A stretch of DNA of 30,641 bases from an uncultured Spirochaetota bacterium. GTDB taxonomy: Bacteria > Spirochaetota > Brevinematia > Brevinematales > JAOACQ01. The translations under genes and the position numbers were made by a program. The notes beneath the pieces are model-generated. The model worked only from the letters and a program-made list of their open reading frames with translations, made no database searches and had not been told where the DNA came from. Positions 3,925 through 30,429 of this stretch are shown in pieces (position 1 is the stretch's first letter; the number at the start of each line of letters is the position of its first letter). Where the stretch lies: assembly GCA_963783575.1 (NCBI GenBank), contig CAWAOD010000002.1, positions 1-30,641 of the forward strand, given 5' to 3'.

Positions 3925-4912
3925 TCAAACCTTTTCATCAGAGAGAACGGTTTCACTGCTCCTTGCCAGATATCGTTGAAGCAGAATGAAAATAAAAATA
4001 AGAATGCCTACAACTATCCTAGTCCACCAGGAACTTAAAGTACCCTGAAAGTTAATAAAATTTTGTATCAGTCCGAGGATCAACACTCCCACAAGAGTTT
4101 CCTTCGATATATCCGATACCTCCTGTTAAAAGAGTTCCCCCTATAACTACCGATGCAATAACATCCAATTCAAGGCCGCTGGCCGCCGCAGCATAGCCGG
4201 AAAGTGTATAAACAGAATATATTATTCCCGCCAGTGCGCAAAGTGTACTGTTAAGAGTATAAATCATAATCTTGGTTCTTCCGACAGGCAGCCCCATCAA
4301 TAAGGCCGATTGCTCGCTACCGCCGATAGCATACGTATTCCGGCCGAAATTAGTAAAATGAGACAAATATGCTCCCAATAATACAATAAAAATAAACACA
4401 ATAGCAACAATAGGCAAATTCACTCCCTTAAACAATGGAATTCCTGCTGTAGAAATCCGGATTAAGAGAGGATGTGTAATCGGTATGGAATCAAGGCTTA
4501 CCATATATGCGGCTCCTCTGGCGAGGAACATACCGGATAAAGTAACAAGAAAAGCCGGGAGCTTAAAAAAATGTATAAGACTTCCCATCGTCATTCCAAT
4601 TATCGCACCGATTGTAAGAGTGATTAATATTACGAGAAATGGATGGTAATGATATTTCTCTATCATTTGAGCCATATAAATACTTGTGAATGCTACCATT
4701 GATCCAACGGATAGATCGATGCCGCCTGAAATAATGACAAAAGTCATTCCGACTGCAATAATTCCTAAAAAGGCATTATCATAAAAAAGATTTATAAAAA
4801 CCCTCAGCGAGAAAAATCCGTTATACATAAATGAACCGATGCAATAAATCAGGATAAAAACACACACAGTGGCCAATAAAGGTATATTTTTTCTCCTTAT
4901 ATTTATTTTCAT
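3925..4912 (-). pseudogene. yjfF: YjfF-like sugar ABC permease (copy 2), interrupted by a single extra base near 4098-4100 (real frameshift or sequencing error)
   Basis: ORF 4052-4912 has GGIDLSVGS and the EAA-loop (YAIGGSEQSALLMGL) but ends in unrelated residues after GGIGYIEG. Removing one A from GGAAAC restores TLVGVLILGLIQNFINFQGTLSSWWTRIVVGILIFIFILLQRYLARSSETVLSDEKV* (stop 3925-3927), matching the paralog at 7209-8228. Confidence 0.85.
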
Positions 4913-4925
4913 AACTCAAACTCCA

Positions 4926-5999
4926 TTAGACAATCAAATTACCGAGAAAAACTAATATAAATTTTTTAAAGTTTAAAATTATCTTTTTAAACTCCTCAGA
5001 CTGTATAAGAGAAACAACTAAAACTACAAAAGCTTTGGGAACCAATATTTGTTCTGGAGGTATGCCTCTTGTCAATATTGTTGTTGTAAGACTTTGAATA
5101 ATAAGCGTACCGATCATAGAACCTGCAATTGTAAATTTGCCTCCCCATACTGTTCCGCCAATTATAACCGATGCAATAGCGTCAAATTCCTGATATAATC
5201 CGCAATTATTACCGTCCGCACCTTTGATGTCGGATGTAACAATCAAGCCGGCAATACCGGCACACAAGCCGCAGAAAATATAAACTATCAGCTTTATAAG
5301 CTTAGTATTTAAACCCATATATCTGCTTGCCGCAGGGTTCTCGCCTACCGCTTCAATAAGCATACCCAACTGAGTTTTTCGGGTTATTCCATAAGTCAGT
5401 AATAACAGCAAAAAAACAATAACTATGGGGAATGGTATTCCGAATAATTCACCACTACCGATATATTGAAAAGATTTATGTTGAAAAATAATAATCTGTC
5501 CTGAAGTTATGAGTTGCGCAATACCTCTGCCGGTTATCATAAGAATCAGAGTCGCAACAATCGGTTGTATCCTGATATATGAAACTAAAAATCCATTCCA
5601 TAAACCGGCAATTATTGAAACCAATAAAGGGATAATTATTACTATAAAAATTGGGACCGGTACACCATATTCAAGAATACCTGCCGTATATCCCGGCCTG
5701 ATGATTATAGCCGCAACAGCGCCGGAGATTGCCATAATAGCTCCGACGGAAAGATCGATCCCGCCGGTAGCATATACAAGCGTCATACCTATTGATAACA
5801 GCATAACAGGAGCGCCCCTGTTTAATATGTCCACAAGGCTTCCAAAAAGTCTGCCATCTTTAATTTCAAGCCTGATAAAACCCTTGGTAAAAATTATATT
5901 AAACAGAATTATAAGCAAAAATGCAATAAACGGCCAGATCAATTTTTTAAGATTTATATTTGTTGCAATTCTTTTTAATAGTTCCATGTTATTTTCCAT
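4926..5999 (-). CDS. ytfT: YtfT-like sugar ABC permease (copy 2)
   Basis: Hydrophobic BPD_transp_2-type protein: LEIKDGRLFGSLVDIL, GGIDLSVG, IQPIVATLILM, EAVGENPAASRYMG, ADGNN; paralog of 8225-9250. Confidence 0.85.
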   Translation of the reverse strand: MENNMELLKRIATNINLKKLIWPFIAFLLIILFNIIFTKGFIRLEIKDGRLFGSLVDILNRGAPVMLLSIGMTLVYATGGIDLSVGAIMAISGAVAAIIIRPGYTAGILEYGVPVPIFIVIIIPLLVSIIAGLWNGFLVSYIRIQPIVATLILMITGRGIAQLITSGQIIIFQHKSFQYIGSGELFGIPFPIVIVFLLLLLTYGITRKTQLGMLIEAVGENPAASRYMGLNTKLIKLIVYIFCGLCAGIAGLIVTSDIKGADGNNCGLYQEFDAIASVIIGGTVWGGKFTIAGSMIGTLIIQSLTTTILTRGIPPEQILVPKAFVVLVVSLIQSEEFKKIILNFKKFILVFLGNLIV

Positions 6000-6043
6000 T
6001 ATTTTATTTATGTCAAAAAAACATCGGTTCTGGTTTATTTTCC

Positions 6044-7015
6044 CTAATATTTCCTTGTAGGTAAAATTTTTTTAGCTGATTCCTGCGGAAAAACATACTC
6101 CTTAGTAACAATTCTCTTAGGTATTGTTTTACCCTCTATTAAATCTTCAATGGCATCAAAGAATTGAGGACCTAAAATGGGATTGCACTCGACAGTGCAA
6201 TTAAGCTTGCCTTCTATCATTGCTTCGAAAGCATCTCTAACAGAATCGATTGAAACAATTATTATGTCTTTTCCAGGCTTTAAGCCATATTCTTCAATAG
6301 CCTGAATAGCTCCAAGAGCCATATCGTCATTATGTGAGAACAAAATATGAATGCTTGCTCCTTCGGATTTTAAAAAAGCTTCCATTACCTCTTTTCCCTT
6401 TGTTCGGGTGAATTCACCGGTTTCTGTTTTAATAATCTTAAAATCAGGGTAACTTTTCAAAATTTCCCTGAAACCATTAAATCTATCTTTTTCAGGGGCC
6501 GAACCCACAGTCCCCTGAAGTTCAACAATATTCCTTTTATCCTTCGGCGCATTACTGACAAGCCATAAAGCAGCTCTGCGGCCTTCCTCAACAAAATCGG
6601 ACCCCATAAAAGTTACCCATAATGTTTCATCCGTTTCATCAACAGCTCTGTCGCATAAAATTACAGGTATTCCGGCAGATTTAGCTTCCCTCAAAACAGG
6701 CCCCCATCCCGATTCAACCACCGGTGAGAATCCTATCACATCAACATTCTGAGCAATAAATGATCTGATTGCTTTAATTTGATTTTCCTGCTTCTGTTGG
6801 GCATCCGAAAATTTTAATTTAATTCCTCTCTTTTTAGCTTCGGAAATTATCGATTCAGTATTGGCAGTCCTCCAGGCGCTTTCTGCGCCGATTTGAGAAA
6901 AACCAACAATAATACTTTGAATATTCTTACCTTTTAAATCTCCGGCAGATAAAATATTTGTAAAGGTAATCATATTCAAAAAAATAAATATTAACCATTT
7001 ATTTAAAAATATCAT
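6044..7015 (-). CDS. ytfQ: YtfQ-like periplasmic sugar (galactofuranose/arabinose-type) binding protein (copy 2)
   Basis: VGFSQIGAESAWRTANT, SDAQQKQENQIKAIRSFIAQ, ELQGTVGS, HNDDMALGAIQAI, VECNP, C-terminal RKY; signal peptide. Start placed at ATG 7015 (AGGAGG RBS). Confidence 0.9.
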   Translation of the reverse strand: MIFLNKWLIFIFLNMITFTNILSAGDLKGKNIQSIIVGFSQIGAESAWRTANTESIISEAKKRGIKLKFSDAQQKQENQIKAIRSFIAQNVDVIGFSPVVESGWGPVLREAKSAGIPVILCDRAVDETDETLWVTFMGSDFVEEGRRAALWLVSNAPKDKRNIVELQGTVGSAPEKDRFNGFREILKSYPDFKIIKTETGEFTRTKGKEVMEAFLKSEGASIHILFSHNDDMALGAIQAIEEYGLKPGKDIIIVSIDSVRDAFEAMIEGKLNCTVECNPILGPQFFDAIEDLIEGKTIPKRIVTKEYVFPQESAKKILPTRKY

Positions 7016-7137
7016 TATACCTCCTGATAATAAAAATAATAATATTTTAGAACACATAATGTATTATTTCAAAATATCCGGCTAATAAATGTTTCTTTAG
7101 TTCTATTAATTTAATATTTATTTATTTCAAAAATAAA

Positions 7138-7208: not shown

Positions 7209-8228
7209 TCAGCTTTCCTTAACAACATTTACAGGATTTGCATTTTCCTTCTGCTTAAGTCCAATTCGATTGGCTTCAAAGAATCTTTGCAGAATACAGA
7301 ACAGAAATACCAATAAACCAATAATTATTCTTGTCCACCAGGAATTAATCGTGCCCTGAAACATAATCAACACCTGGATTGTTCCATATACCAATACGCC
7401 GAATATCGTTCCCAGAATACTACCCACGCCTCCTGTTAAGAGAGTGCCGCCGATTACCACCGAAGCGATTGCGTCCAGTTCCATACCTTTTCCATCCAGT
7501 GCATAACCTGACATTGTGTATAATGTGAACACAATCCCGGCTAAAGCCGAACAAAAGCCGCTTACTGCATAAATTATCATCTTCGTACGCGCCACAGGAA
7601 GGCCCATTAAAATGGCCGACTGTTCATTTCCACCCATTGCATAAATTGTCCGGCCGTATTTAGTGTAACGCGCAATGTATATTCCTATAAATACGGTAAT
7701 CAGCGCTATTGCCGCACCTATCGAGATAAAATTACCGCCTAATAAATTGATGTGAAATTGCGCCAAGGCATTATAAAATGGATTGTTAATCGCTATAGTA
7801 TCAATACTTACAACATAACACAAACCTCTTCCCAGGTACAAACCGGCTAATGTAATAATAAAAGGCGGAAGATCAAAAGCCTGAATTAAATACCCCATCA
7901 TTAAACCAAGCAATGTTCCTATTATCAGAACCACCGGCAGAACAATTATAATGCTTAAATGCGACTTTTCCATGAGGCTTGATGTTACCATTGTTGCCAA
8001 GGCAAGCATGGAACCTACAGACAGGTCAATGCCGCCTGATATAATGACAAATGTCATTCCCACGCCCAGTATTAACAGATAGGCATTATCAATGAACAGG
8101 TTGAAAAAATTCTGAACTGAAAAGAAGTTTGTAAAAGCAACCGAACCTGATCCAAACATAACAATAAACAGCCCAATAGTTACAAAAGTTGGTAGATTTC
8201 TGGCATTTATCAAAGATTTCTTATTCAT
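7209..8228 (-). CDS. yjfF: YjfF-like sugar ABC permease (copy 1)
   Basis: GGIDLSVGS, YAMGGNEQSAILMGLPV, ELDAIASVVIGGTLLTGG, FQGTINSWWTRI; overlaps the upstream stop (ATGA coupling). Confidence 0.9.
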   Translation of the reverse strand: MNKKSLINARNLPTFVTIGLFIVMFGSGSVAFTNFFSVQNFFNLFIDNAYLLILGVGMTFVIISGGIDLSVGSMLALATMVTSSLMEKSHLSIIIVLPVVLIIGTLLGLMMGYLIQAFDLPPFIITLAGLYLGRGLCYVVSIDTIAINNPFYNALAQFHINLLGGNFISIGAAIALITVFIGIYIARYTKYGRTIYAMGGNEQSAILMGLPVARTKMIIYAVSGFCSALAGIVFTLYTMSGYALDGKGMELDAIASVVIGGTLLTGGVGSILGTIFGVLVYGTIQVLIMFQGTINSWWTRIIIGLLVFLFCILQRFFEANRIGLKQKENANPVNVVKES

Positions 8229-9250
8229 GCTGACAGCTCCTTTCTACTAAATATTCCAGTTACCTTCGAACGGAATTTTTCAGACTGCAGTAAACAGATT
8301 GCATAAACAACTATAGCCTTTACTACCTGCGAAATTTCCGGCGCCACATTAAATGCATAGATAGTTGTTGTAAGTGTCTGAATGATCAAGGCGCCTACCA
8401 TACTGCCCAGAAGGTAAAACTTTCCTCCGTTAAGTGATGTTCCGCCAAGCACAACAGCCAATATGGCATCCAGTTCAAATAAGTTACCGGCATTATTTCC
8501 GTCAGCGCTTCCTACAACCGAACAGACGATCAATCCTGATACACCCGCGCAAAACCCGCTGAATGTATAGCACCAGAAAATAATATTCTTGGCATTTATT
8601 CCTGAAAATCTTGTTGCCGTTGGATTTATTCCCACAGATTCAATAAATAAACCCATAGCTGTTCTTCTTGTCAATATTATAGTTAAAATTAATACAACCG
8701 CTACAATGTATATATCAAACGGCAGACCCAGCAGGTAACCCTGGCCAAGATAAAAGAACGGTTTGTGATAGAGCCAGATGATCTGCGCATTCGTAAAAAC
8801 CATGGCTATACCGCGGCCGGCGACAAAAAGTATCAGCGTTGCTATAATAGGCTGCATACCAACTCGTGAGACCAGCATCCCATTCCACATTCCGGCTAAT
8901 ATTGAAATCACCAAAGCGGCGAGCATACAGATAAAAAGAGGATGAAGTGAAACCCCCTTCAAATCTCCCCCGATTAAAACCGCTACGGCGCCGGCTGAAA
9001 TCGCTACCACCGAACCGACAGATATGTCAATTCCATGCGTCGCAATCACAAGTGTCAGCCCTATTGCCAGAAGCATAATCGGGGCGGCATTCTTTATAAT
9101 ATCAATAAGATTGCCGTAAAGATGCCCTTCTTTTATTTCCATGGCGAAAAAATTTTTGGTAAAAAACAGGTTAAATAGTAAAAGTATTCCAAGAGCAACC
9201 AAAGACCATATAATTCTGGAACTTGTAAAACGCTTCCAAATATTGACCAT
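8225..9250 (-). CDS. ytfT: YtfT-like sugar ABC permease (copy 1)
   Basis: GIDISVGS, MQPIIATLILFVAGRG, ESVGINPTATRFSG, ADGNNAG, ELDAILAVVLGGT. Confidence 0.9.
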   Translation of the reverse strand: MVNIWKRFTSSRIIWSLVALGILLLFNLFFTKNFFAMEIKEGHLYGNLIDIIKNAAPIMLLAIGLTLVIATHGIDISVGSVVAISAGAVAVLIGGDLKGVSLHPLFICMLAALVISILAGMWNGMLVSRVGMQPIIATLILFVAGRGIAMVFTNAQIIWLYHKPFFYLGQGYLLGLPFDIYIVAVVLILTIILTRRTAMGLFIESVGINPTATRFSGINAKNIIFWCYTFSGFCAGVSGLIVCSVVGSADGNNAGNLFELDAILAVVLGGTSLNGGKFYLLGSMVGALIIQTLTTTIYAFNVAPEISQVVKAIVVYAICLLQSEKFRSKVTGIFSRKELSA

Positions 9251-9252
9251 AC

Positions 9253-10779
9253 CTATTTACCTCCCGCAATAGCATGCAAGATGCCGTTCTCATTCATTTC
9301 ATTATCACGCAGTTCCCCGATTTTTGCTTTGTCCTTTAAAACAGCAATCCTGTTGCTGCAGCGTACAACCTCCTCAAATTCAGAGGAGATAAATAATACT
9401 CCCATCCCTTCCCTGCTCAGATTAAGTATCAATTCCATAATCTCAAGTTTAGCTCCGACATCTATACCGCGTGTAGGCTCATCCAGGATAAGAGTTTTCG
9501 GCTTTGTAGCAAGCCATCTTGCCAGCATAACTTTCTGCTGATTACCTCCGCTTAATCTTTTAACTGCCTGGTCTTCACTTGGAGTCCTTATCCCTAAAGT
9601 TTTAATAAAATTGTCAGCAATTGCCATCTGTTTTCTTTTTGGTATATATTTAAACATTCCATTTTTACCCTGTAAAGCGAGAATTATATTTTCCCTCACT
9701 GAAAGATCAGGAATGATTCCCTCGCTCTTTCTGTCTTCGGGACAATACCCCATGCCCGCAGAAACTGCATCTTCCGGCGAATTGATATTTGTTTTGGTAT
9801 CATTAATTTTAACTTCGCCATAATCCGCTCTTTCTATCCCAAAGATAAGCCTTGCCATTTCCGTCCTTCCGGAGCCAAGAAGCCCAGCAAGGCCGAGAAT
9901 TTCACCTTCATTGATGTTCAGATCAAAAGGCGAGAGATAACCCTGCTTTCCCATGCCTCTTATTTTAACTATTGGATTTGCCACTTTTGCAGCTGCTCCG
10001 GCTTCTTTTCTCCTTTCATCGTCTCTTCTGGAATAGCTGAATTCCGATAATTCCTTACCCAGCATCTTAGCAATAAGATCAATCTTCGGCAGTGAAGCTG
10101 TTTTATACTCCCCAACCAACACACCATTTTTCAAAACCGTGATACGGTCCGATATCTGGTAAGTCTGGTCCAAAAAATGGGTTATGAATATTATTGCCAT
10201 ACCTTCATCACGCAATTTACGGATTACTTTAAATAACTGATCAACTTCCTTTTCATCAAGACTTGAGGTCGGTTCGTCCAGAATTAAAATCTTGGCAGAC
10301 ATATCCAGTACACGCGCAATAGCTGCCATCTGCTGAATTGCGATGGAACAGGATGATAATACCTGGGTTACATCTATCACTATATTTAACCGTTTTAATA
10401 TTTCTTCCGATTTCCGGTACATCGTCTTCCAGTCAATTCTTCCATATTTCATCGGCTCTTTACCGATAAAAATATTCTCGGCGACTGATAAGTTCGGACA
10501 AAGATTTACTTCCTGATACACTGTGCTGATTCCCAGTTTTTGAGCTTCCAGCGGTGAATCCGGTTTTATAGGTTTCCCTTCTAAAAAAATATCTCCGGAA
10601 TCCTGTTTATGAACTCCTGTCAAAACCTTTATCAAGGTTGACTTCCCGGCTCCGTTCTGGCCCATTATAGCATGAACCTCTCCTTTATAAAGATGGAAAT
10701 CCACATCAGATAAAGCTTTCACTCCAGGAAAATATTTATTAATTTTTTTCATCTCCAATACTGTTATATTCTCAGCCAT
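9253..10779 (-). CDS. ytfR: CUT2-family sugar ABC ATPase with two NBDs (YtfR-like)
   Basis: Walker A GQNGAGKST, Q-loop VYQE, Walker B ILDEPT, H-loop ITHF; second NBD with LSGGNQQ and LDEPTRGIDVGAK. Confidence 0.93.
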   Translation of the reverse strand: MAENITVLEMKKINKYFPGVKALSDVDFHLYKGEVHAIMGQNGAGKSTLIKVLTGVHKQDSGDIFLEGKPIKPDSPLEAQKLGISTVYQEVNLCPNLSVAENIFIGKEPMKYGRIDWKTMYRKSEEILKRLNIVIDVTQVLSSCSIAIQQMAAIARVLDMSAKILILDEPTSSLDEKEVDQLFKVIRKLRDEGMAIIFITHFLDQTYQISDRITVLKNGVLVGEYKTASLPKIDLIAKMLGKELSEFSYSRRDDERRKEAGAAAKVANPIVKIRGMGKQGYLSPFDLNINEGEILGLAGLLGSGRTEMARLIFGIERADYGEVKINDTKTNINSPEDAVSAGMGYCPEDRKSEGIIPDLSVRENIILALQGKNGMFKYIPKRKQMAIADNFIKTLGIRTPSEDQAVKRLSGGNQQKVMLARWLATKPKTLILDEPTRGIDVGAKLEIMELILNLSREGMGVLFISSEFEEVVRCSNRIAVLKDKAKIGELRDNEMNENGILHAIAGGK

Positions 10780-10889: not shown

Positions 10890-11867
10890 TCAATACTGAC
10901 GTGTCGGTAATGCTGCAGCGGCAGTTGTCTCGTCAAAAATACCTTCGATTGTATTGATTTTTGCAGGAAGCTTTTTGCCGGCCATCAGATCTTTAACAGC
11001 CTGTAAAGCCTGGGGTCCAAGAAGAGGATTACATTCTACAGAGCAATTCATTTCACCAGCAACCATAGCTTCGAATGCACCCTTAACACCATCCAAACCA
11101 ATGATAATGATATCTTTTCCGGGTTTGAGACCGGCTTCTTTGATAGCCTGTATGGCGCCGAGAGCCATTCCATCGTTATGAGCATATAAAACCTGGATGG
11201 TTTTGTCGGCTTTCAGAAAAGCTTCCATAACGGCTTTACCTTCAGCAACTGTAAAGTTACCGGTCTGAGAACGGGTAATCTTCCAATTGGGATGGTTAGC
11301 AGCCATAACGGTCCTGAAGCCTGCAGCTCTCTCGATAGCAGGAGCAGAGCCGGTGGTTCCCTGAAGTTCGACTATGTTAATCGGCTTCGTGCCGTCATCG
11401 ATACCTTTCTTCTTTAAATAGTCACCCAGCCATGTAGCGGCTTTTTCGCCTTCTTTCGTAAAATCGGAACCCATAATGGTCAATCTTAAATCCCTGTCTT
11501 CTTTTGCAACATCTCTATCAATCATTATAACAGGAATCTTGGCTTTTTTAGCTTCTTCAAGAACCGGGCGATAACCGGTTTCAACAATAGCAGTAAAAAC
11601 AATTACATCAACTTTTCTGGTAATAAAAGATCTTAAAGCCTTAATCTGGTTTTCCTGCTTCTGCTGTGCATCGGAGTAGATAAGAATCATATTGGGATCG
11701 TCATTGAAAGTATTCTGAACAGAAACGGTATCGGCATCTCTCCATTCGCTTTCAGAACCAACCTGTGCGAAACCGACTACAATTTTTCCGCCGACTTTAG
11801 CGAAACTAACCGAGAATACAACCATTGCTGCGGTCAACAACAACAAACCTTTTAGCCACTTGTTCAT
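10890..11867 (-). CDS. ytfQ: YtfQ-like periplasmic sugar binding protein (copy 1)
   Basis: Signal peptide ending VSFA; VGFAQVGSESEWR, SDAQQKQENQIKALRSFI, HNDGMALGAIQAI, VECNPLLGP. Start placed at ATG 11867 (AGGAGG RBS). Confidence 0.9.
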   Translation of the reverse strand: MNKWLKGLLLLTAAMVVFSVSFAKVGGKIVVGFAQVGSESEWRDADTVSVQNTFNDDPNMILIYSDAQQKQENQIKALRSFITRKVDVIVFTAIVETGYRPVLEEAKKAKIPVIMIDRDVAKEDRDLRLTIMGSDFTKEGEKAATWLGDYLKKKGIDDGTKPINIVELQGTTGSAPAIERAAGFRTVMAANHPNWKITRSQTGNFTVAEGKAVMEAFLKADKTIQVLYAHNDGMALGAIQAIKEAGLKPGKDIIIIGLDGVKGAFEAMVAGEMNCSVECNPLLGPQALQAVKDLMAGKKLPAKINTIEGIFDETTAAAALPTRQY

Positions 11868-12102
11868 AAACAATCCTCCTAAAATTTTTATGTCTTTCGA
11901 CACTTCTTTCTTTTCTTTATTAATTTACTACTAATAAAGAAAAGACTCATAAAACAACACCTTCCGACACCCATCATTTAAAAACGATGAATATCCCGCC
12001 ATCCGCTTACATATAATCCTCCTTTATATTTTGCTCCCATCATTACCAAAAGAGGTAATCTGAAAACAAAATTATTTTTAAATTAAAAGAATTATAATCA
12101 GC

Positions 12103-12753
12103 TTATTTTGAAACATTCAAAAATTTGTAAATATTCTGACCTGTAAATAATTTTTCAATATCAAACTTGAGCGGTCCTATTACATTGCTGACAGCTCCAT
12201 TGGGATATGCAAGCAGTAATGTGTTATTTATTGCAATGATTGTGACTTTTCCTTTAATATCCAACCGGTCTCCATATTTAATATCCTTCTCGTTTCCATT
12301 TGCATCTGCATATATTTGCCTTCCAAGGTATTGTTTGACCACAAGTTTGTTTTTAAATGACGGATCGGTTTTGTCGCTTACTTTCGGAAAACTGACGAAT
12401 CTCGGTTTTTCCTTTGAAATTTCCCCTGCTTTTTTAATCACATCTCCCTTATCGCTTCCATCAATCTCATATACAGCAGTAGGATTATTCGCAGGTGTTA
12501 ACTCTACCCAATCCCTATCAACATTGACCCTGATTTCCGCATTGGCAGGTATTGAATCGCCGACTTTAATAACCACCCAATCTCCGGTTCCAACCCTATA
12601 GCTTACATGACCATCTTCAGTTTCAGAATAGAGACCCACAACTGCTAGAGGGCCGCTTTTAGCGGAAGTCTGCTTTTGAGCGGAATATAATCCGGTTATT
12701 GAAATTAATAGAAGAAATGAAAAAACTGAAATACCTGTTTTTAATAATCTCAT
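12103..12753 (-). CDS. Secreted hypothetical beta-rich protein with an apparent internal duplication
   Basis: 216 aa ORF with GAGGAG RBS and Sec signal peptide (…GLYSA); first gene downstream of the sigma-54 promoter. Confidence 0.75.
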   Translation of the reverse strand: MRLLKTGISVFSFLLLISITGLYSAQKQTSAKSGPLAVVGLYSETEDGHVSYRVGTGDWVVIKVGDSIPANAEIRVNVDRDWVELTPANNPTAVYEIDGSDKGDVIKKAGEISKEKPRFVSFPKVSDKTDPSFKNKLVVKQYLGRQIYADANGNEKDIKYGDRLDIKGKVTIIAINNTLLLAYPNGAVSNVIGPLKFDIEKLFTGQNIYKFLNVSK

Positions 12754-12845: not shown

Positions 12846-12861
12846 TGCAATTTACTTGCCA
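12846..12861 (-). promoter_or_regulatory. Sigma-54 (-24/-12) promoter for the hypothetical-ytfQRT-yjfF operon
   Basis: Minus strand TGGCAAG-TAAA-TTGCA matches consensus TGGCACG-N4-TTGCW with exact spacing; a bEBP gene is divergently adjacent. Confidence 0.85.
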
Positions 12862-13074: not shown

Positions 13075-13127
13075 ATTGTATAAATAATACACATTTTCTA
13101 TGTATAATTATGTATATTATTTACACA
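13075..13127. promoter_or_regulatory. Tandem candidate enhancer (UAS) sites TGTA-N7-TACACA
   Basis: ATTGTA-TAAATAA-TACACA (13075-13093) and TATGTA-TATTATT-TACACA (13109-13127), 34 bp apart; the same motif occurs with perfect palindromic arms at 13338-13356. Confidence 0.6.
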
Positions 13128-13318: not shown

Positions 13319-13356
13319 TTGACAACAATTACCAAACTGTGTAGAATTATTACACA
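13319..13356 (+). promoter_or_regulatory. Sigma-70 promoter of the two-component operon overlapped by a palindromic operator
   Basis: TTGACA (13319-13324)-N17-TAGAAT (13342-13347); palindrome TGTGTA-N7-TACACA at 13338-13356. Confidence 0.7.
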
Positions 13357-21547: not shown

Positions 21548-21579
21548 ATTCACTCTCCTAATAAATTTCATATTATAAC

Positions 21580-22275
21580 CTATTTCTGACCATAATAAGC
21601 ATTTTTACCATGTTTTCTTTTATAATGTTTATCTATTAATGATTTTTTCAGCCTTACAGAATTCGGATTAATCTGCAGTGTAAACAAAGCCATTTTTGCC
21701 AGTTCTTCAAGAACAACGCTGTTATAAACCGCTTTTTCAGGAGTTTTACCCCAGGTAAAAGGGCCATGACAGGCTACAAGCACCATTTCTACCTCTGTAT
21801 AGGAATAATTTTTGAACAATTCTATAATCTGATTTCCGGTTTCAACCTCATAATCTCCCTGAATCATTTTATCGCTCATAATTTTTGTACAGGGAATATC
21901 GACAGGCATATGATCCGCATGAGTGGTTCCAAAAATCGGAATCGGTTTTACGGCCTGTGCCCACGCTACGCTGTAAGTTGAATGGGTATGTACAATACCT
22001 CCAATCTCCGGAAAGTTTTTGTAAAGTATTGTATGCGTTTTTGTATCCGAAGAGTAGCGCAGTTTTCCCTCAATAACCCTGTTTTCAAAGTCTACAACAA
22101 CCATATCTTCCGGTTTTAATTCATCATATGGAACACCGCTGGGTTTTATGGCAAAAACCCCTTTTTCGCGATCAATAGCGCTTACATTTCCAAAAGTATA
22201 AACCACAAGTTTTTTCTTTGGAAGTTCCATATTACACAGCCAGGCTTTTTCCTTCAATTCATCAAATGAGCTCAC
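21580..22275 (-). CDS. araD: L-ribulose-5-phosphate 4-epimerase
   Basis: TFGNVS, IKPSGV, SSDTKTH, VHTHS, GTTHAD, HGPFTWG, RKHGKNAYYGQ. GTG 22275 preferred as start from its spacing to AGGAG. Confidence 0.95.
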   Translation of the reverse strand: MSSFDELKEKAWLCNMELPKKKLVVYTFGNVSAIDREKGVFAIKPSGVPYDELKPEDMVVVDFENRVIEGKLRYSSDTKTHTILYKNFPEIGGIVHTHSTYSVAWAQAVKPIPIFGTTHADHMPVDIPCTKIMSDKMIQGDYEVETGNQIIELFKNYSYTEVEMVLVACHGPFTWGKTPEKAVYNSVVLEELAKMALFTLQINPNSVRLKKSLIDKHYKRKHGKNAYYGQK

Positions 22276-22284
22276 AAACAACTC

Positions 22285-23964
22285 CTAATTTACCGTTTCG
22301 CTTTCAATAAACTGGGCGATTTTAGAATATCTGACATACAATTCAGAATACTTTTTAACATTCTCCGGAACTGGATTATATTCTTTTTCAAAACCGCTTC
22401 CCATCGCTTTTTGAGCATCAAGTATGTTATTATAAATCCCCGACACAACAGCCGCGAACATAGCAGCTCCAAGAGCGACAGCCTGTTCCGAGCGCGCAAC
22501 TTTAATCTTCATATTCAGCACATCGGCAACGACCTGCATTACAAAAGGAGATTTTTTCGCGACTCCGCCAAGCGCGATGACTCCTTTAATATCAACACCT
22601 TCTGAGATAAATCTATCTACGATCTTTTTTGTTCCAAATGCGGTTGCTTCGACAAGAGCGCGGAAAATTTTCGGCGCATCGCTCCCAAGATTTAAACCGG
22701 TTATTGCGCCTTTCAAAGCCTGGTTGGCATCGGGGGTTCTTCTTCCGTTCAGCCAGTCCAGAGCCACAATTCCGGACTCGCCGATTGGAATTTTTTCAGC
22801 TTCTGCCGTTAATGCAGGAATTATTTTATGTGAAATTTCCTCAATAAGTCCATCCATATTTTTAATTGAAGAAAAGCTGGTTTGTTTTAAGACATTTTCC
22901 ACAGGCCATAAAATAAGTTTTCTGAACCATGCGTATACATCACCAAAGGCCGATTGCCCTGCTTCCATACCCAACATCCCTGGAATAATGGAACCGTCGA
23001 CCTGGCCGCATATTCCATGTATCAATTTGTCACCGATTTCATTCATAGGAGCTACAAGCATATCGCATGTCGATGTTCCCATGACTTTACTGAACATATA
23101 CGGTTCGATCTCGCCGCCGACAGCTCCCATATGCGCATCAAAAGCACCGACACCAACCGCTGTATCAACAGAAAGACCCAGTTTTTTTGCCCATTCTGGA
23201 GTTAAATTCCCAACTTTAACATCACTTGTATATGTATCTTTGAAAAAACGGCTTCTTAAACCTTTAAGGAGCGGATCAAGCTTTTCCAGAAATTTCTCAT
23301 CAGGAAGGCCTCCAAATTTTTCATGCCACATAGCCTTATGCCCGGCGGCACAGCGGCTTCTTTTAATTGCGGCCGGGTTGGTATTCCCCGTCAGCAATGC
23401 TGGAATCCAGTCACAGTGCTCTACCCAGGAATATGCGGATTCCCTTACTTTTTCATCAACCCTGATTATATGGAGTATCTTGGCCCAGAACCATTCTGAT
23501 GAATATATCCCGCCTTCATATTTTGTAAAATCAATACCGCCCCAGTTTTTTGCCTTATAGTTGATCTCTTCGGCTTCCTTAACAGCGGTATGATCTTTCC
23601 ATAATATAAACATAGCGTTGGGATTATATTCAAAACCCCTGGTTAAAGATAGAGGCATTCCGTTTTTATCCACGGCAACAGGGGTTGAACCGGTCGTATC
23701 AATGGATATTCCTTTAATATTTTCAGCAGTGCCTTTTGGCGATTTCAAAAGAGAAGCCTTGATTGTTTCTTCAAGCCCTTCAATATAATCAAGGGGATGC
23801 TGTCTGAACTGGTTTTTTGCGGGATCACAAAAACTCCCGTTTTTCCATCTTGAGTAATAATGAATGGCACTTGCAATTTCTTTTCCATTTGAAGCATCCA
23901 CTATAACTGATCTAACCGAATCCGTTCCATAGTCAACACCGATTACATAATTTAATTCGCTCAT
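22285..23964 (-). CDS. araB: Ribulokinase (FGGY family)
   Basis: GVDYGTDSVR, FRQHP, LWKDHTA, YSSEWFWAK, CAAGHKAMW, MGTSTCD, GICGQVDGS, DWLNGRRTP. Confidence 0.95.
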   Translation of the reverse strand: MSELNYVIGVDYGTDSVRSVIVDASNGKEIASAIHYYSRWKNGSFCDPAKNQFRQHPLDYIEGLEETIKASLLKSPKGTAENIKGISIDTTGSTPVAVDKNGMPLSLTRGFEYNPNAMFILWKDHTAVKEAEEINYKAKNWGGIDFTKYEGGIYSSEWFWAKILHIIRVDEKVRESAYSWVEHCDWIPALLTGNTNPAAIKRSRCAAGHKAMWHEKFGGLPDEKFLEKLDPLLKGLRSRFFKDTYTSDVKVGNLTPEWAKKLGLSVDTAVGVGAFDAHMGAVGGEIEPYMFSKVMGTSTCDMLVAPMNEIGDKLIHGICGQVDGSIIPGMLGMEAGQSAFGDVYAWFRKLILWPVENVLKQTSFSSIKNMDGLIEEISHKIIPALTAEAEKIPIGESGIVALDWLNGRRTPDANQALKGAITGLNLGSDAPKIFRALVEATAFGTKKIVDRFISEGVDIKGVIALGGVAKKSPFVMQVVADVLNMKIKVARSEQAVALGAAMFAAVVSGIYNNILDAQKAMGSGFEKEYNPVPENVKKYSELYVRYSKIAQFIESETVN

Positions 23965-23999: not shown

Positions 24000-25049
24000 T
24001 CAATATCCATTGTAATAAATAAAGTTTTCCTTTGTTATTATTTCTAAAGGCATCATAATACTTTTTTCACAGGGTTCCTGAAGGACTATAGAGCGATATA
24101 AAGTGTATATACCTTCATATCCCTGAGTTTCCGCTTTCTGGCTGATTATGAAATCTATTATACCTTCATTTAAGTATTCAATATTATCCCGTACAAGATC
24201 ATATCCTATCAAATGAATTTTACGGTTACTAATTTTATTTTTTAAGTATTCGCCGGCATTATGTACGGAAACATTTGTAACGAATATACCTTTCAAATCT
24301 TTATTCTCTGCAAAAATATCATCCATCAATTTAAAAAATGTATCCTTATCGCTATGATTTGATAATTCATATGTTACAAGCCTTATACCAGTTTCATTTT
24401 CAAAATAAAATTTAAATCCTTCAGCCCTTTTCATGATGTGATAGTCATCATGAAATGCCAGAATGACAGCAATAATTCCCTTTTTTCCAACCATCAATTT
24501 CATAAGCTTGCCGCAAATAACACCGCTTTGAAAAGAATCCTGGCCTATAAAAGACAAAGCTTTTTCTCCGGGAATATTTGCATCAAAAAATACATAAGGT
24601 ATATTATCAGGTATCCTTTGCAGAAATTCCTTTATAGCCTGATATAATACAGGAGCTATTAAAATCCCGTCAGCTTCCGAATCCAGAACTTTACTGCCTG
24701 CACGTTTAAATGAATTCTCCGAATATCTGTCGTAAAACATATATTTCAGTTTCACATGATATGGTTTAAGTTCATTTTGAGCCTTCTCCATACCTTTCAC
24801 TGTCATTTCCCAATATCTGCTGTCCTGAAAGGGTTTAGGCATTAAAACTGCAAAATTAAATACCTTTGACATAGAAAGACGTCTTGCAAAAATATTCGGT
24901 TTATAACCGGATTCTTTGATAACTCGCAATACTTTATCGGTTGTTTCTTTCGATACCCTTCCTCTTCTATGGACGACACGGTCCACTGTTCCGATTGAAA
25001 CATCAGCCTTTTGAGCGACATCCTTTATAGTAATCAATATTTTCTCCAA
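24000..25049 (-). CDS. LacI-family transcriptional regulator
   Basis: TIKDVAQKADVSIGTVDRVVHRRGRVS HTH, hinge YKPNIFAR, periplasmic-binding-fold C-terminus. TTG start at 25049 or, with a better RBS, 25037. Confidence 0.92.
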   Translation of the reverse strand: MEKILITIKDVAQKADVSIGTVDRVVHRRGRVSKETTDKVLRVIKESGYKPNIFARRLSMSKVFNFAVLMPKPFQDSRYWEMTVKGMEKAQNELKPYHVKLKYMFYDRYSENSFKRAGSKVLDSEADGILIAPVLYQAIKEFLQRIPDNIPYVFFDANIPGEKALSFIGQDSFQSGVICGKLMKLMVGKKGIIAVILAFHDDYHIMKRAEGFKFYFENETGIRLVTYELSNHSDKDTFFKLMDDIFAENKDLKGIFVTNVSVHNAGEYLKNKISNRKIHLIGYDLVRDNIEYLNEGIIDFIISQKAETQGYEGIYTLYRSIVLQEPCEKSIMMPLEIITKENFIYYNGY

Positions 25050-25058
25050 AAATGATTA

Positions 25059-25375: not shown

Positions 25376-25379
25376 TATT

Positions 25380-25491: not shown

Positions 25492-26466
25492 TTAAGACTT
25501 TTTGCCCTGTCTGACCTGGTCAAATATGACGGCAACAAGAAGAATTACACCTTTAGCCAGATATTGGTAAAATGTCGGAATCCCAAGAAGATTCATTGCG
25601 TTCTGGACAGATCCCATAATCATAACTCCGACAATGGTACCTATAATCGTACCAACCCCTCCCATCAGCGATACGCCCCCAAGAACGCATGCTGAAATGC
25701 AGTCAAGCGAAAATCCAGCTGAGCTGTTAGGCTGACCGCTCGTCATTCTAGAGGCAAGAATTATACCCGCAAGGCCGGCCATAAATCCCTGTATTGTAAA
25801 TATCATTATTTTTATTCTATCAACATTTATACCGGCAAGCCTGGCAGCCTCCTTATTGCCTCCGATAGCCATTGTATTCCTTCCATAAGTTGTTTTATTT
25901 AGAAGAAATCCAAAAACTATAAAAACTATTATGGTAATCCAGATGGGATTGGGTACGGAAAGAAACCGGCCGTTGCCAAGCACAAAAAATTGTTCTTTGT
26001 TTATTCCAACGGAACTTCCGTTTGAGGTAATAAAAGCTACACCTTTAACAATATAGAGCATCGCAAGAGTTGTTATCAGCGAATTGATTTTAAGCTTTGC
26101 GACAACAATACCGCTTACTAATCCTGCCGCGCCGCCCGCAAGAAGACCGCATAAAACACCAAAATAAATGTTTCCTGTCTTGCTTATAATCACAGCGGTG
26201 AGAACACCCGCCAGAACAACAATGCCTTCAACCGATAGATCAACCTCGGCGGCGCCAAGACAGAAAAGCATTGTGCTCGCTACCATACCAACCATCGATA
26301 TTGAAAGAACCAGACCGATAATATTCTGCACTGTAAAGAAATATGGAACAAAAATCGATAGTAAAATGAATAGGATTAAAAACACCACCAGCATACCCGC
26401 ATTTTCCCATATACTTTTTAAACTGAAGGTACTTTTTTTTGAAATAGCTACATCGTTTGTCTTCAT
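25492..26466 (-). CDS. araH: L-arabinose ABC transporter permease
   Basis: IWENAGMLVVF, GMVASTMLFCL, DLSV, KINSLITTLA, AIGGNKEAARLAG, SRMTSGQP, ISACVLGGVSL. Confidence 0.9.
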   Translation of the reverse strand: MKTNDVAISKKSTFSLKSIWENAGMLVVFLILFILLSIFVPYFFTVQNIIGLVLSISMVGMVASTMLFCLGAAEVDLSVEGIVVLAGVLTAVIISKTGNIYFGVLCGLLAGGAAGLVSGIVVAKLKINSLITTLAMLYIVKGVAFITSNGSSVGINKEQFFVLGNGRFLSVPNPIWITIIVFIVFGFLLNKTTYGRNTMAIGGNKEAARLAGINVDRIKIMIFTIQGFMAGLAGIILASRMTSGQPNSSAGFSLDCISACVLGGVSLMGGVGTIIGTIVGVMIMGSVQNAMNLLGIPTFYQYLAKGVILLVAVIFDQVRQGKKS

Positions 26467-26489: not shown

Positions 26490-27995
26490 TTATTTTTCTT
26501 CCGTCTCTGACAACGGCAAAGCTAATTGCAGCAATTTTTCCTGGGTTGCCTCACTTCGATTTAATGAACCTACTATTTTTCCCTCTTTCATTACTATGAT
26601 ACGGTCGCATATACCCAGAATTTCCGGCAGTTCGCTGGAAACCACAACCACACCGAACCCTTCTTCTGCAAGGCTGAAGATTATAGAATATATTTCCGTC
26701 TTCGCACCGACATCAATGCCTCTGGTCGGTTCGTCCATAAGAATTATTTTTATATTTTCAGACAGCCATCTTGCCAGAATGACCTTTTGCTGATTTCCAC
26801 CGGAAAGGTTCATCGCTAATTGGTTAAGACGCGGGGTTTTTATATTGAGTTTTTTGATAAATTTTATTGCATTATCTATTTCCTTCTTATTATTAATCAT
26901 AAAACCGAAATTTGAAAAAAGCCTTCTCACACTTATATTAATATTCTCCAGAACAGAGCGGATTGGAATAATACCTTCCTGTTTTCTGTCTTCCGGGCAA
27001 TATGTTAGGCCGTTTCTTATCGAATCCCTGACGTTATTGATAATGATTTCTTTACCGAGAATCTTTATTTTTCCTGAATTCTTCGGGGTGCTGCCATAGA
27101 CAAGCTTCATCAGTTCCGTCCTGCCAGCTCCGATCAAACCAAAAAAGCCTACAATCTCGCCGGCAGCAACAGAAAAACCGGCAGGTTGTTTCAAACCCGG
27201 GCCCATGATATTTTCTACTTCAAGAATCGGTTCTCCGGTTTTTCTGGGTTTGTAATTATAGATATCCGTTATTGAACGTCCGACCATGTTTTTAACTAAT
27301 AGATCTCTTGTTACATTTTCTATCGTTTCAAAGTTTTGTACAAGCTTGCCATCTCTGAAAACAGTAACCGAATCGCAAATTTCAAATACCTCTTCGAGTC
27401 TATGGGATACATATATAATAGTGCGCCCCTTGTTTTTCAGATCCTTCACAACCGCAAATAATCTTCTTACTTCCCTATCAGAAAGGCTTGAAGTCGGTTC
27501 ATCAAAAACGATAATTTTTGCATCCTGCAACAGCGCTTTGGCAATTTCTATCATCTGGCGCTGGCCGATCGATAAATTTTTCAATTTTATCGACGGCTCA
27601 ATATTTTCACCTATAGTTTTCAAAATTTTTAATGAAGTCTCTATCATCTTCTTTTTATTCACTATGCCGAAATTAGTCGGGTATTTACCTAATAACAGGT
27701 TCTCAGCAACCGTCATTTCCGGAACCAGGTTCAATTCCTGGTAGATTGCGGCAACCCCGGCATTAAGCGCTTCTTTTGTATTTTTAAAAAATTGTTTTTT
27801 TTCCCCGAAAATAATATTACCAGATGTTGGCACATAGGCGCCGCTTAATATTTTCAGTAAAGTTGATTTTCCAGCGCCATTTTCTCCAACCAATCCATGA
27901 ACACTGCCTTCTTTTACACCGAATGAAACACCGTCCAATGCCCTGACTCCTGGAAAATCCTTTGAAACAGAATTGAATTTCAAGTAAGCTTCCAT
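26490..27995 (-). CDS. araG: L-arabinose ABC transporter ATPase
   Basis: GSVHGLVGENGAGKSTLLKILSG, LVPEMTVAENLLLG, FDEPTSSLS, YVSHR, LSGGNQQKVILARWLSE, DEPTRGIDVGAK. Confidence 0.92.
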   Translation of the reverse strand: MEAYLKFNSVSKDFPGVRALDGVSFGVKEGSVHGLVGENGAGKSTLLKILSGAYVPTSGNIIFGEKKQFFKNTKEALNAGVAAIYQELNLVPEMTVAENLLLGKYPTNFGIVNKKKMIETSLKILKTIGENIEPSIKLKNLSIGQRQMIEIAKALLQDAKIIVFDEPTSSLSDREVRRLFAVVKDLKNKGRTIIYVSHRLEEVFEICDSVTVFRDGKLVQNFETIENVTRDLLVKNMVGRSITDIYNYKPRKTGEPILEVENIMGPGLKQPAGFSVAAGEIVGFFGLIGAGRTELMKLVYGSTPKNSGKIKILGKEIIINNVRDSIRNGLTYCPEDRKQEGIIPIRSVLENINISVRRLFSNFGFMINNKKEIDNAIKFIKKLNIKTPRLNQLAMNLSGGNQQKVILARWLSENIKIILMDEPTRGIDVGAKTEIYSIIFSLAEEGFGVVVVSSELPEILGICDRIIVMKEGKIVGSLNRSEATQEKLLQLALPLSETEEK

Positions 27996-28115: not shown

Positions 28116-29108
28116 TTATTTAGGAATAGCTATTCCGGAATCCGTGTAAACCTTCTTCCAATTTTCTTTTGTGATAAGAGTTCCTGCAGTTCTGGTATCC
28201 GCAGCCGGTACTGTACCTTTTGTAATCCAATCAAACATCATTTTTGTTGTATTATAACCATGTACTTTTGCCGCTAAAAGAATGGTCCCATAGAAACCGG
28301 TAGCAGTAGGTTTGGTCCATTCATTTACTGCAACGGATCCACCATTGATGCCAACAGCGCAAATGTCAGCAGCTTTGAATCCCCTGCCTTCAAGAGCGCG
28401 AACGCCGCCGATCACAGATTCTTCATTTCCTGAGAATAGAAGCCAGTGTTTAAAATTAGGGTTCTTTGTAATAACGATTGTAGAAGCGTCAAATCCGCCG
28501 GGAGTATCGTTGCTCTTCTCGGGAGCTTCTAATATATTAGCCTGAGGGAAACCTGCGGCGAGCAGAGATTTAATAGCGCCATCTGTTCTGTCTTTAATAG
28601 TCTGAAGCTCATTGAAGCTGATTTCAATAGCAGCGGTTTCTGATGCTTTCCAGCCGCGTTTCTTAAATTGATTGGCAAGAGTCGCGCCAACATTTTCGCC
28701 AATTTTACCGGCAGAAATGCCAAGATAAGGAACCTCAGCCATAGGATTACCGTTGGCATCTACCCAGCGGTCATCAACAGCTATGTACTTCAATCCGAGA
28801 GAATCCGCTTTTGCTTTAATAGCAGATCCAAGTTTCGGATCGGGAGTGCAGATTACGAAACCCTTGGCACCCTGTGCGGCAAGAGTATCCAATGCAGCAA
28901 GGACTTTGTCGCCATCAGTAGCGCCAATCGGTATTACTGTAAAACCAAAATCTTTAGCGCATTGGGCGGCAAACTTCTGTTCCAGTTGAAACCAGGATTC
29001 TTCGGGTTGTTTTACCAGGAAGCCAATCTTCACGTCTGCAGCAAAACTTGCAGCAGTAAACCCAGCTGTTAATAGAAGACTCACTAAAACCAAACACAAC
29101 TTCTTCAT
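28116..29108 (-). CDS. araF: L-arabinose-binding periplasmic protein
   Basis: Signal peptide; KIGFLVKQPEESWFQLE, GAKGFVICTPDPKLGSAI, AVDDR, GGVRALEG, GING are hallmark AraF segments; AAGGAGGAG RBS. Confidence 0.92.
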   Translation of the reverse strand: MKKLCLVLVSLLLTAGFTAASFAADVKIGFLVKQPEESWFQLEQKFAAQCAKDFGFTVIPIGATDGDKVLAALDTLAAQGAKGFVICTPDPKLGSAIKAKADSLGLKYIAVDDRWVDANGNPMAEVPYLGISAGKIGENVGATLANQFKKRGWKASETAAIEISFNELQTIKDRTDGAIKSLLAAGFPQANILEAPEKSNDTPGGFDASTIVITKNPNFKHWLLFSGNEESVIGGVRALEGRGFKAADICAVGINGGSVAVNEWTKPTATGFYGTILLAAKVHGYNTTKMMFDWITKGTVPAADTRTAGTLITKENWKKVYTDSGIAIPK

Positions 29109-29303
29109 AAACTCCTCCTTTAATATTATTTATTTCGAAGTGTCTTTTAGGATCTTTCATTTCTCTTTAAAAATAATTTACTTTTATCATAGAGCGGATT
29201 GCACAATGAATACCATATATAAATTGAACATTTTAATGGACAATTTGAGCAATTTATATAATTATTTAAAATATATTTTCTAATATTTGTGCATAAAATG
29301 GAT

Positions 29304-29337
29304 TTTTTGGTATTATAGATATGATTTTTGGTAATAT
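29304..29337. promoter_or_regulatory. Tandem direct repeat with 21-bp period upstream of araF (candidate AraC-type binding site)
   Basis: TTTTTGGTATTAT (29304-29316) and TTTTTGGTAATAT (29325-29337). Confidence 0.45.
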
Positions 29338-29361
29338 TTTTGATTCACCACTGATAAATTT

Positions 29362-30429
29362 TTATTCTATGATGTAATCTACCCTGCCATCTCTGAATTT
29401 TACCGGGGATAAATTTACTTTTTCTTTAAAAATACGCGAGAAATAATAAGGATCATCAAAACCAAGCTTAATGGCGATTTCCTTGATTTCAAGATTTGTA
29501 TAAATCAGCATTTCTTTTGCTTTTTCCATTTTAATTTTTATGAAATACTGATTTGGAGATAAGCCTGTCTCCACTTTAAAACGCCTTCTAAAATTCTCAT
29601 ATCCCATATAAACTTCTACAGCTACTTTATGGAAATCAATATTATTATCCATAACCCTTTCTTCCATGATCATCTTGGCTTTATGGATAGGGTCATGAAC
29701 CTGCTGTATCTGTAGTTTTTGAGAGGATAAAAGCAATTCATTAATTTTATCATCTGAAATATCTATACTGTTTTCCAATTCAATTAATTTTGAATTTTTA
29801 ATTAAATATAATTTATCAACCAGTACTTTTACATCTTCTGCGGTACTCGGGAGAATTATAATACATTTTCCTTTATTCTTTAATTCTTTGATTATGGAAA
29901 CGAAGGCTTCAAACTGTCTTAAACTCATTAAACGGGTAATCTGGCCAAATACATAATAATCGCAGTCCATTGTCAAAACCCTTGCAATTTCCACCATCAG
30001 TTTTTCATTTGGATTCAATTGTTTTAATTTCAACTTAATATTAATAGGCGTCTGAAGCTTTTCCAAAACCGAAATTCCTTTTTTAATCATTAGTTTCTTG
30101 TTTATAAAACCATATCTCGAATAAAGATTGGAACTGCTTAAAAAAATATTTTCAAGAACTGTCATATTATCTATCAAATTAAAGTTTTGTCTCATTATTC
30201 CAATATTTTTTATCCTGCTATTGTGTAATAATTTTTGATTCATAAAATAGATATAGCCGGAATCCTCATTTTCTAATCCGCACAGGATATTTATAAAGAT
30301 ATCCAATGCTTTCTGATTATCCGATATAATACCGCAAATATTCCCGGTCTTTACTTCCAGATTGATATTGTCAAGCATCAGAAAATTCTCTTTTGTTATG
30401 GTAATTTTTTCCAGTTTTAAAATTTTCAT
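29362..30429 (-). CDS. AraC-family regulator with an N-terminal degenerate sugar-ABC ATPase-like domain
   Basis: N-terminal LDNINLEVKTGNICGII...ILCGLENEDSGYIY...NMTVLENIFL...MVEIARVL resembles a CUT2 NBD; C-terminal AraC HTH FRRRFKVETGLSPNQY...IKEIAIKLGFDDPYYFSRIFKEKVNLSPVKFR. Start placed at ATG 30429; a TTGACA-N17-TAATCT promoter lies at 30450-30478. Confidence 0.88.
   Translation of the reverse strand: MKILKLEKITITKENFLMLDNINLEVKTGNICGIISDNQKALDIFINILCGLENEDSGYIYFMNQKLLHNSRIKNIGIMRQNFNLIDNMTVLENIFLSSSNLYSRYGFINKKLMIKKGISVLEKLQTPINIKLKLKQLNPNEKLMVEIARVLTMDCDYYVFGQITRLMSLRQFEAFVSIIKELKNKGKCIIILPSTAEDVKVLVDKLYLIKNSKLIELENSIDISDDKINELLLSSQKLQIQQVHDPIHKAKMIMEERVMDNNIDFHKVAVEVYMGYENFRRRFKVETGLSPNQYFIKIKMEKAKEMLIYTNLEIKEIAIKLGFDDPYYFSRIFKEKVNLSPVKFRDGRVDYIIE

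Follow-up and report, generated by a model that had tools for sequence, protein, structure and literature searches.

Two soluble regulators with built-in importer-type ATPase domains at a double sugar-import locus of an uncultured Spirochaetota bacterium

Furanose and pyranose importers encoded together are not new, because a Clostridium beijerinckii cluster with both gaf and araFGH has already been described (PMC10191376). In that cluster, GafABCD and AraFGH stand with araBAD-type genes, and the described account includes no regulator fused to a nucleotide-binding domain (NBD); in Escherichia coli, the ytf operon is controlled by ordinary AraC and by GalR/GalS (PMC10191376). Here, we describe a locus of an uncultured Spirochaetota bacterium that likewise holds both importers with araBAD-type genes and that encodes two regulators that begin with an NBD like that of CUT2 sugar importers, which are ATP-binding cassette (ABC) transporters. 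One is a histidine kinase, and the other is an AraC-family protein. The stretch analyzed, 30,641 nucleotides (GenBank assembly GCA_963783575.1, contig CAWAOD010000002.1), is called the window; it is one entire contig of a 4.9-Mb genome that is 90% complete. Open reading frame (ORF), Pfam, and NCBIfam scans of the window placed three modules where the original prediction, made from the letters alone, had put them: a ytf (gaf) set with a bacterial enhancer-binding protein (bEBP) and the kinase, araFGH with the AraC fusion, and a catabolic operon headed by lacI. The ring-form specificities that this prediction had cited for AraF and YtfQ are confirmed in PMC10191376.

We propose that both fusions dock, via a degenerate copy of the first ATPase domain (NBD1), on the coupling helices of importer permeases in place of the real ATPase, and that the sugar-loaded binding protein signals through them. 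We give this reading a probability of about 0.55. The regulator genes are as follows.

13356..14720, + strand: NtrC-type response regulator (bEBP) with REC, sigma-54 AAA+ with GAFTGA, and Fis helix-turn-helix (HTH) domains
14698..16548, + strand: NBD1-helical linker-PAS-HisKA-HATPase kinase, 616 residues, soluble
29362..30429, - strand: NBD1-AraC fusion, 355 residues, soluble, with ABC_tran and AraC HTH domains

Neither gene is an artifact of assembly, because the same architecture recurs in many homologues. The N-terminal 371 residues of the kinase return 663 protein matches, and ABC_tran, HisKA, and HATPase occur together in 118 of the 120 matches listed; named members of the family include Spirochaetales, KSB3/Moduliflexota, and Desulfobacterota. 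The AraC fusion is matched by 14 clusters, the window's own included, over at least 94% of its length. This breadth bears on the idea that the NBDs are gene-fusion leftovers, mere dimerization or spacer domains of constitutive activators. The decay of catalytic motifs, greatest in the AraC family, speaks for such an origin, but the full-length domain has been kept in those 118 of 120 listed kinase homologues, in several phyla, and in 14 of 14 AraC clusters, and we consider the idea very improbable.

Each fusion carries one NBD, compared with two in tandem in active CUT2 ATPases (RbsA/AraG/YtfR), and no membrane segments were found in either. That both regulators use a CUT2-type NBD as input, as originally predicted, is borne out by phylogeny, in which all fusion domains group with NBD1 (98/96), and not with NBD2 or Liv-type ATPases; an origin from NBD2 was rejected. 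The kinase has the H, N, G1, and G2 boxes of class I histidine kinases, and its structural model (predicted local distance difference test [pLDDT] of 78.7; predicted template modeling score [pTM] of 0.44) has a PAS fold between the linker and HisKA. Its partner has the receiver Asp, the GAFTGA motif, and the sigma-54 site of an NtrC-type system, and rpoN is present in the genome. In the AraC fusion, the C-terminal double HTH (PF12833) scores 65.9 bits against a cutoff of 33.6, and the cupin N-terminal domain of E. coli AraC type is missing, as evidenced by the lack of a PF02311 match; the N terminus is ABC_tran instead.

The original prediction had called both domains pseudo-NBDs, a label that suits the AraC domain and is too strong for the kinase family. 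The AraC fusion has lost Walker A, the Q-loop Gln, the catalytic Glu, and the switch His, and all 20 family rows, some of them near-duplicates, lack Walker A. The whole NBD fold is retained in its model despite this loss (pLDDT of 84.2), and its top Foldseek matches are ABC NBDs. The window kinase, by comparison, keeps Walker A and the Q-loop and has lost the signature, the catalytic Glu, the D-loop, and the switch His. No variation occurs across 57 aligned rows of its family at the Walker A Lys, the Q-loop Gln, or the Walker B Asp; the Glu and His are kept in 81% and 88%, respectively, and the signature region and D-loop are lost; among the 120 matches listed, Walker A is kept in 118 and the catalytic Glu in 91. 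With Walker A, the Q-loop, and in most members the catalytic Glu retained in its family, the kinase is likely to bind nucleotide. CUT2 ATPases have asymmetric NBDs that pair within one chain (PMC11466899), and neither fusion should hydrolyze ATP as a transporter does, since neither has an NBD2 to supply an intact signature.

A third output came to light in G264 (genomes are numbered G, loci L, and contigs C). There, a degenerate NBD1 is joined to a SpoIIE/PP2C phosphatase (L196:8575-10434, on G264:C3), its NBD groups with the AraC family (100/99), and the gene lies about 5 kb from a CUT2 importer. No relatives of this protein were found beyond its single own cluster.

The genomic company of the fusions was surveyed over 25 kinase genes, namely, 3 from the bacterium's own genome, 7 in six loci from collection scans, and 15 from genome searches. 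The scans also returned ordinary kinases or AraC proteins at 74/80 and 78/80 loci, which were dropped, and a kinase fragment with no visible NBD (L237) was left out. The phylum-wide genome searches scored 3 to 5 candidates per genome, so misses are possible, and several of the kinase and AraC loci come from related genomes and hence are not independent. Importer genes with PF02653 permeases adjoin 24 of the 25 kinase genes. A bEBP gene also adjoins 24, the remaining one being cut by a contig end, and every kinase locus has a sigma-54 site with at least 9 of 11 consensus positions. CUT2 binding protein genes adjoin all nine AraC fusions. The original prediction would have been refuted had the fusions shown no genomic association with CUT2 transporters; these counts (24/25 and 9/9) show one.

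At L076, two bEBP-kinase pairs are divergently arranged, and both pairs have a CUT2 importer and a sigma-54 site of their own. The kinases of L229 and L235 adjoin importers with single-NBD ATPases of about 260 to 280 residues. In L188 (G113:C136), the NBD-kinase faces an importer of branched-chain amino acid type whose permease belongs to the same family, and a B12-binding corrinoid protein is encoded alongside. The bacterium's own genome has two further NBD-kinase and bEBP pairs, on C3 (L001:9750-16519) and C14 (L002:7335-14660), and each pair faces a CUT2 importer that has a sigma-54 site. Frame breaks affect both of these kinase genes and one or more ATPase genes, and single-base errors may therefore be common in the assembly.

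A binding protein and permease without an ATPase accompany the AraC fusion at four of eight assessable loci, in two lineages. Three of these have XylF-XylH and belong to one genus (G143, G333, and G405; L193, L194, and L208), and the fourth has AraF-AraH (L086); in L085, AraF is cut by a contig end. No XylG above the cutoff was found in the three genomes of that genus, which are 83 to 97% complete. Moreover, the coupling-helix motif is kept in all five ATPase-less permeases checked. At L193, L194, and L208, the xylF-xylH genes and the AraC fusion also adjoin a gene for a major facilitator superfamily carrier, which could be the working transporter.

Complete importers accompany the AraC fusion elsewhere: AraFGH in the window and G139, MglBAC in G206, and another in G264. 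In the KSB3 locus L005, AraFGH goes with the kinase and not with an AraC fusion. A strict pairing of regulator type with ring form was therefore rejected, and the one-regulator-per-ring-form arrangement suggested earlier is not a rule, as partners swap between genomes. Since regulator type does not follow sugar or ring form across loci, the modules appear interchangeable, and the three-layer layout of the window is a local mosaic of such modules rather than a conserved furanose-versus-pyranose design. Among 401 genomes searched, both fusions occur in three, and only the window genome has the two in one locus.

Partner swapping also bears on the alternative that the ligand is a sugar or sugar phosphate inside the cell, which either the PAS domain or a remodeled NBD pocket would bind without an intermediary, and that importer adjacency reflects control only. 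Both fusions are soluble, which suits this alternative. AraC-family proteins usually bind sugar directly. The PAS domain of CbrA binds a ligand (PMC7096432), a further point in its favor. On the other hand, close homologues serve importers for different sugars (AraFGH, MglBAC, and XylF/H), and NBDs linked to AraF and to MglB are 54 to 58% identical, for which a sugar-blind adapter is a better fit than a sugar pocket. LacI, in addition, already covers cytoplasmic sensing here. We judge direct binding unlikely.

Within the window, the docking reading draws attention to the gaf (ytf) cluster. The predicted YtfQRT-YjfF module is present; it had been drawn as single and is in fact double, with a second set, Q2-T2-F2.

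3925..4912, - strand: yjfF2, GafD-like permease of set 2 (NCBIfam YjfF, 354 bits, residues 6-275)
4926..5999, - strand: ytfT2, permease of set 2, 63% identical to the kinase-linked permease of L187; coupling-helix motif kept
6044..7057, - strand: ytfQ2, GafA-type, predicted furanose-binding protein of set 2, 75% identical to that of L187 (top PDB matches 6hbd/6hbm, 5ocp, and 2vk2)
7209..8228, - strand: yjfF1, permease, above the NCBIfam YjfF cutoff
8225..9250, - strand: ytfT1, permease, clusters with G139 and G206 orthologues
9253..10779, - strand: ytfR, tandem-NBD ATPase of set 1, 66 to 69% identical to those of G139/G206 (tree support, 97/97)
10890..11903, - strand: ytfQ1, GafA-type binding protein (top PDB match 5ocp, arabinofuranose-specific GafA)
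12103..12753, - strand: ORF of 216 residues (orf216), no Pfam family, hydrophobic N terminus, first gene past the sigma-54 site

The gene order is orf216-Q1-R-T1-F1 for set 1, followed by Q2-T2-F2. Set 2 has no ATPase gene, because just 44 bases separate Q2 from T2, and no second YtfR was found in the 90%-complete genome. Q1 and Q2 both fall below the NCBIfam YtfQ cutoff; each has only five PDB matches with E values of <1e-40, and all are GafA proteins. By their closest solved relatives, therefore, Q1 and Q2 are GafA-type, and a furanose specificity is predicted. GafA proteins that differ in selectivity are reported to have identical first-shell residues (PMC10191376). The 216-residue ORF is kept (51 to 53%) directly ahead of gafA in three relatives, where it heads set 1, and its product is a candidate accessory arabinose protein.

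The history of the locus can be sketched from its relatives. In three relatives from the same family, lacI-araB-araD-orf216-Q1-R-T1-F1 form one contiguous operon that lacks a kinase, and set 1 groups with these; in G139, G206, and G186, the orthologous gaf operons lack the sigma-54 site as well as the kinase. Searches of 11 other genomes of the family yielded no kinase fusion. In the tree, the sister of the window kinase is that of L187 (100/98), and in G333 the sister kinase stands opposite a Q-R-T-F set. Set 2 groups with the L187 transporter and with the Q-R-T-F set of G333 and G143, with good support for YjfF alone (87/95; 56/67 for YtfQ and 53/24 for YtfT). In the simplest reading, set 2 came in with the kinase and the bEBP; these newcomers took control of the set 1 promoter, and the ATPase that they had brought was lost. 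Set 2 would now borrow YtfR, serve as a receptor, or be decaying.

The original claim that the NBDs were co-opted twice is not established. In a mixture-model tree built from 39 of the 99 domains delimited, the kinase and AraC domains come together weakly, with support of 90/68, which is below the star level of the tree tool, and neither fusion domain is placed beside its local ATPase; a quick tree did not settle the union. Approximately unbiased (AU) tests of origin from the neighboring ATPases gave p values of 0.26 and 0.18, with no rejection.

If the fusions dock as proposed, each of the two coupling helices of the permease would meet one NBD1 copy of a dimeric regulator, these copies would feel the change caused by the sugar-loaded binding protein outside, and the docked regulator would switch on the importer's own promoter. 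The kinase would phosphorylate its NtrC-type activator, which would drive the sigma-54 gaf operon. Its partner would probably be the ATPase-less set 2 (Q2/T2/F2), which clusters with a set from another family that is linked to a kinase. For the AraC fusion, the target to be activated would be araFGH; repression by LacI would be limited to the catabolic operon. We favor docking because ATPase-less sets that keep their coupling helices recur and because close homologues pair with different sugars.

A number of observations weigh against docking. A regulator of a transporter operon adjoins that operon whatever it senses, and many of the surveyed loci are from related genomes. The L189 kinase sits beside lacI-araB-araD-araA with no importer nearby, and its sigma-54 site faces a nontransporter gene; conversely, the kinase-free gaf-like operons L201 and L202 do have sigma-54 sites. 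The residues common to NBD1 and both fusions are perhaps needed for folding only, and the kinase PAS domain could bind a ligand directly. Set 2 itself may be decaying, because yjfF2 is frameshifted (its frame, read from the sequence, is broken near 4100, with a stop). Finally, a normal ATPase is present at 23 of the 24 kinase loci with a transporter (the remaining one is cut short), and the kinase would thus have to compete for the permease at most of its loci.

This last point leads to another alternative, in which the fused NBD monitors transport from the cytoplasm in the manner of MalK-MalT, either by pairing with the real ATPase of the transporter or by sensing ATP/ADP. The nucleotide-binding motifs kept by the kinase family and the ATPase at most kinase loci agree with this, and for 7 of 11 kinases, at loci that are not independent, the own-locus ATPase ranks in the top 3 of 11 by similarity. 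The window kinase ranks its own neighboring ATPase 10th of 11, an observation that tells against docking. Against pairing stand the AraC family, which lacks Walker A and at half of its assessable loci has no ATPase to pair with, and the fact that CUT2 ATPases already pair both NBDs within one chain (PMC11466899). Pairing is, to our minds, improbable, if a little less so than direct sugar binding.

Promoter motifs provide candidate routes from the regulators to their targets.

12846..12861, - strand: sigma-54 (-24/-12) site, matching the consensus at 10 of 11 positions (0 of 300 shuffles)
13077..13127, no strand assigned: pair of TGT-N11-ACA sites 34 bp apart, candidate bEBP enhancer, about 215 to 265 bases upstream of the sigma-54 site
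29208..29248, - strand: candidate AraC-fusion operator, two half-sites 21 bp apart with a weak -35 adjoining, upstream of araF

The whole window has only two sigma-54 sites, that at 12846-12861 among them, and none was found in eight AraC-locus regions. A third TGT-N11-ACA site (13340-13356) overlaps the bEBP gene's own promoter, and similar pairs, 31 to 33 bp apart, occur in L183, L184, L187, and L189; 8 of the 19 regions examined have no such site. Any rarity of this consensus in the genome is a circular argument, because the consensus was drawn from the window itself.

A 21-base period is typical of AraC sites. In the candidate AraC operator, a 41-base block, the window shares 27/41 positions with G139 and G206, and these two are identical to each other at 40/41 positions, even though the transporter gene that comes next is araF in one genome and mglB in the second. 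When the window site was left out of the profile, the profile had 124 matches in the genome, at least 15 of which score above that site. In control searches, 11 and 51 of 1387 upstream regions match, as do 6 and 30 of 291 AT-matched ones, and the motif was not found in L193, L194, L195, L085, or L086. The assignment of 29208-29248 to the AraC fusion is suggestive only. Close to the contig end, a palindrome with 25-base arms (30557-30600) precedes the AraC fusion gene on its upstream side.

The arabinose importer and the catabolic operon complete the picture.

28116..29108, - strand: araF, L-arabinose-binding protein (top PDB matches are L-arabinose-binding proteins, E value of 4e-100)
26490..27995, - strand: araG, tandem-NBD ATPase, above the NCBIfam cutoff
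25492..26466, - strand: araH, permease, above the NCBIfam cutoff
25056-25069 and 25168-25181, - strand: candidate LacI operator, two copies flanking a sigma-70 promoter
25071-25100, - strand: sigma-70 promoter (12/12), between the two candidate operators
24000..25049, - strand: lacI, LacI-family regulator heading the catabolic operon (Pfam)
22285..23964, - strand: araB, ribulokinase, above the NCBIfam cutoff
21580..22281, - strand: araD, above the NCBIfam cutoff
20063..21571, - strand: fucose-isomerase-like gene (Pfam), where araA would be expected

Orthologues of lacI head lacI-araB-araD in G139, G206, G186, and G143, and the motif TGCGT..ACGTTAA upstream of lacI is invariant in 5/5 aligned genomes. 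Within the window, the candidate operator has two copies, both of them at the lacI promoter, and no further copy, at the importers or elsewhere. Because the motif is conserved and confined in this way, it supports LacI as the regulator of the catabolic operon, in keeping with the place at the head of that operon first assigned to it. The gene at 20063-21571 is not araA; the true araA is alone on C15 of the same genome. An inverted repeat with 22-base arms 67 bases apart (25373-25483) lies between araH and the lacI promoter. Three unrelated genes (16690-19780) separate the kinase from the catabolic operon: one for a 440-residue protein with short internal repeats and no Pfam match, one for an alpha/beta hydrolase, and a MarR gene. 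The genes pbp2 and priA (22-3928) are downstream of the gaf cluster and outside it.

Taken more broadly, CUT2 importers may be modular receptors, in which the binding protein and permease sense and a nontransporting NBD1 plugs in with an exchangeable output (histidine kinase, AraC, or PP2C). Some loci would have dropped the real ATPase and kept a dedicated receptor, as gaf set 2 may have done. We advance this generalization tentatively, with less confidence than docking itself. If it is true, any CUT2 binding protein could set the specificity of a one- or two-component regulator, and NBD-fused regulators could supply plug-in sugar biosensors. The locus holds two versions of the fusion and ordinary LacI control beside well-characterized arabinose importers, and docking, cross-specificity, and the idea of an ATPase-less receptor are therefore testable with laboratory E. 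coli.

Transporter-coupled sensing is known already, and a new type of receptor would be added if docking holds. The locus contributes the juxtaposition of the two fusions, a second gaf set that has no ATPase, the partner swaps between genomes, the LacI operator, and the phosphatase form. No description of either NBD fusion was found in the open-access literature, a coverage to which subscription papers mostly do not belong, and the available accounts of Bce, Pst-PhoU-PhoR, MalK-MalT, and CbrA contain no fused NBD (PMC6978683, PMC10427625, and PMC7096432). Known ABC-coupled sensing uses separate proteins or membrane kinases; soluble regulators with a transporter ATPase domain of their own would represent a novel type of input domain.

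In BceAB-BceS/BceR of Bacillus subtilis, an ABC transporter senses for a histidine kinase that controls the transporter genes, as proposed here; however, BceS is membrane bound and contacts a complete exporter, whereas the window kinase is soluble, has its own NBD, and goes with sugar importers and sigma-54 (PMC6978683). The intramembrane kinase and FtsX-type exporter permease of Bce-type systems have no counterpart in the window, where the kinase has no membrane segment and the permeases are PF02653 importer permeases.

CbrB is a sigma-54 activator. In CbrA/CbrB and CrbS/CrbR, the PAS and kinase domains are preceded by a fused portion of transporter origin, as in the window kinase, but in CbrA that portion is a membrane carrier of the SLC5 family rather than a soluble ABC NBD (PMC7096432). 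XylFII-LytS and ChvE-VirA have a kinase triggered by a sugar-binding protein of the same type, and LytS controls the xylFGH operon; there, however, the binding protein contacts the extracellular domain of the kinase, with no permease or NBD in the path (PMC8050422). The E. coli MalK-MalT system shares with the present proposal a sugar-ABC ATPase that controls an activator by transport state, but MalK is a working motor that holds MalT in trans, whereas here a dead NBD is fused to an AraC DNA-binding domain (PMC10427625). Finally, in PstSCAB-PhoU-PhoR/PhoB of E. coli, an ABC importer signals to a PAS kinase without a periplasmic sensor, as it would here; the Pst link is a separate adaptor that binds the ATPase PstB, whereas the link in the window would be a built-in copy of the ATPase (PMC6978683).

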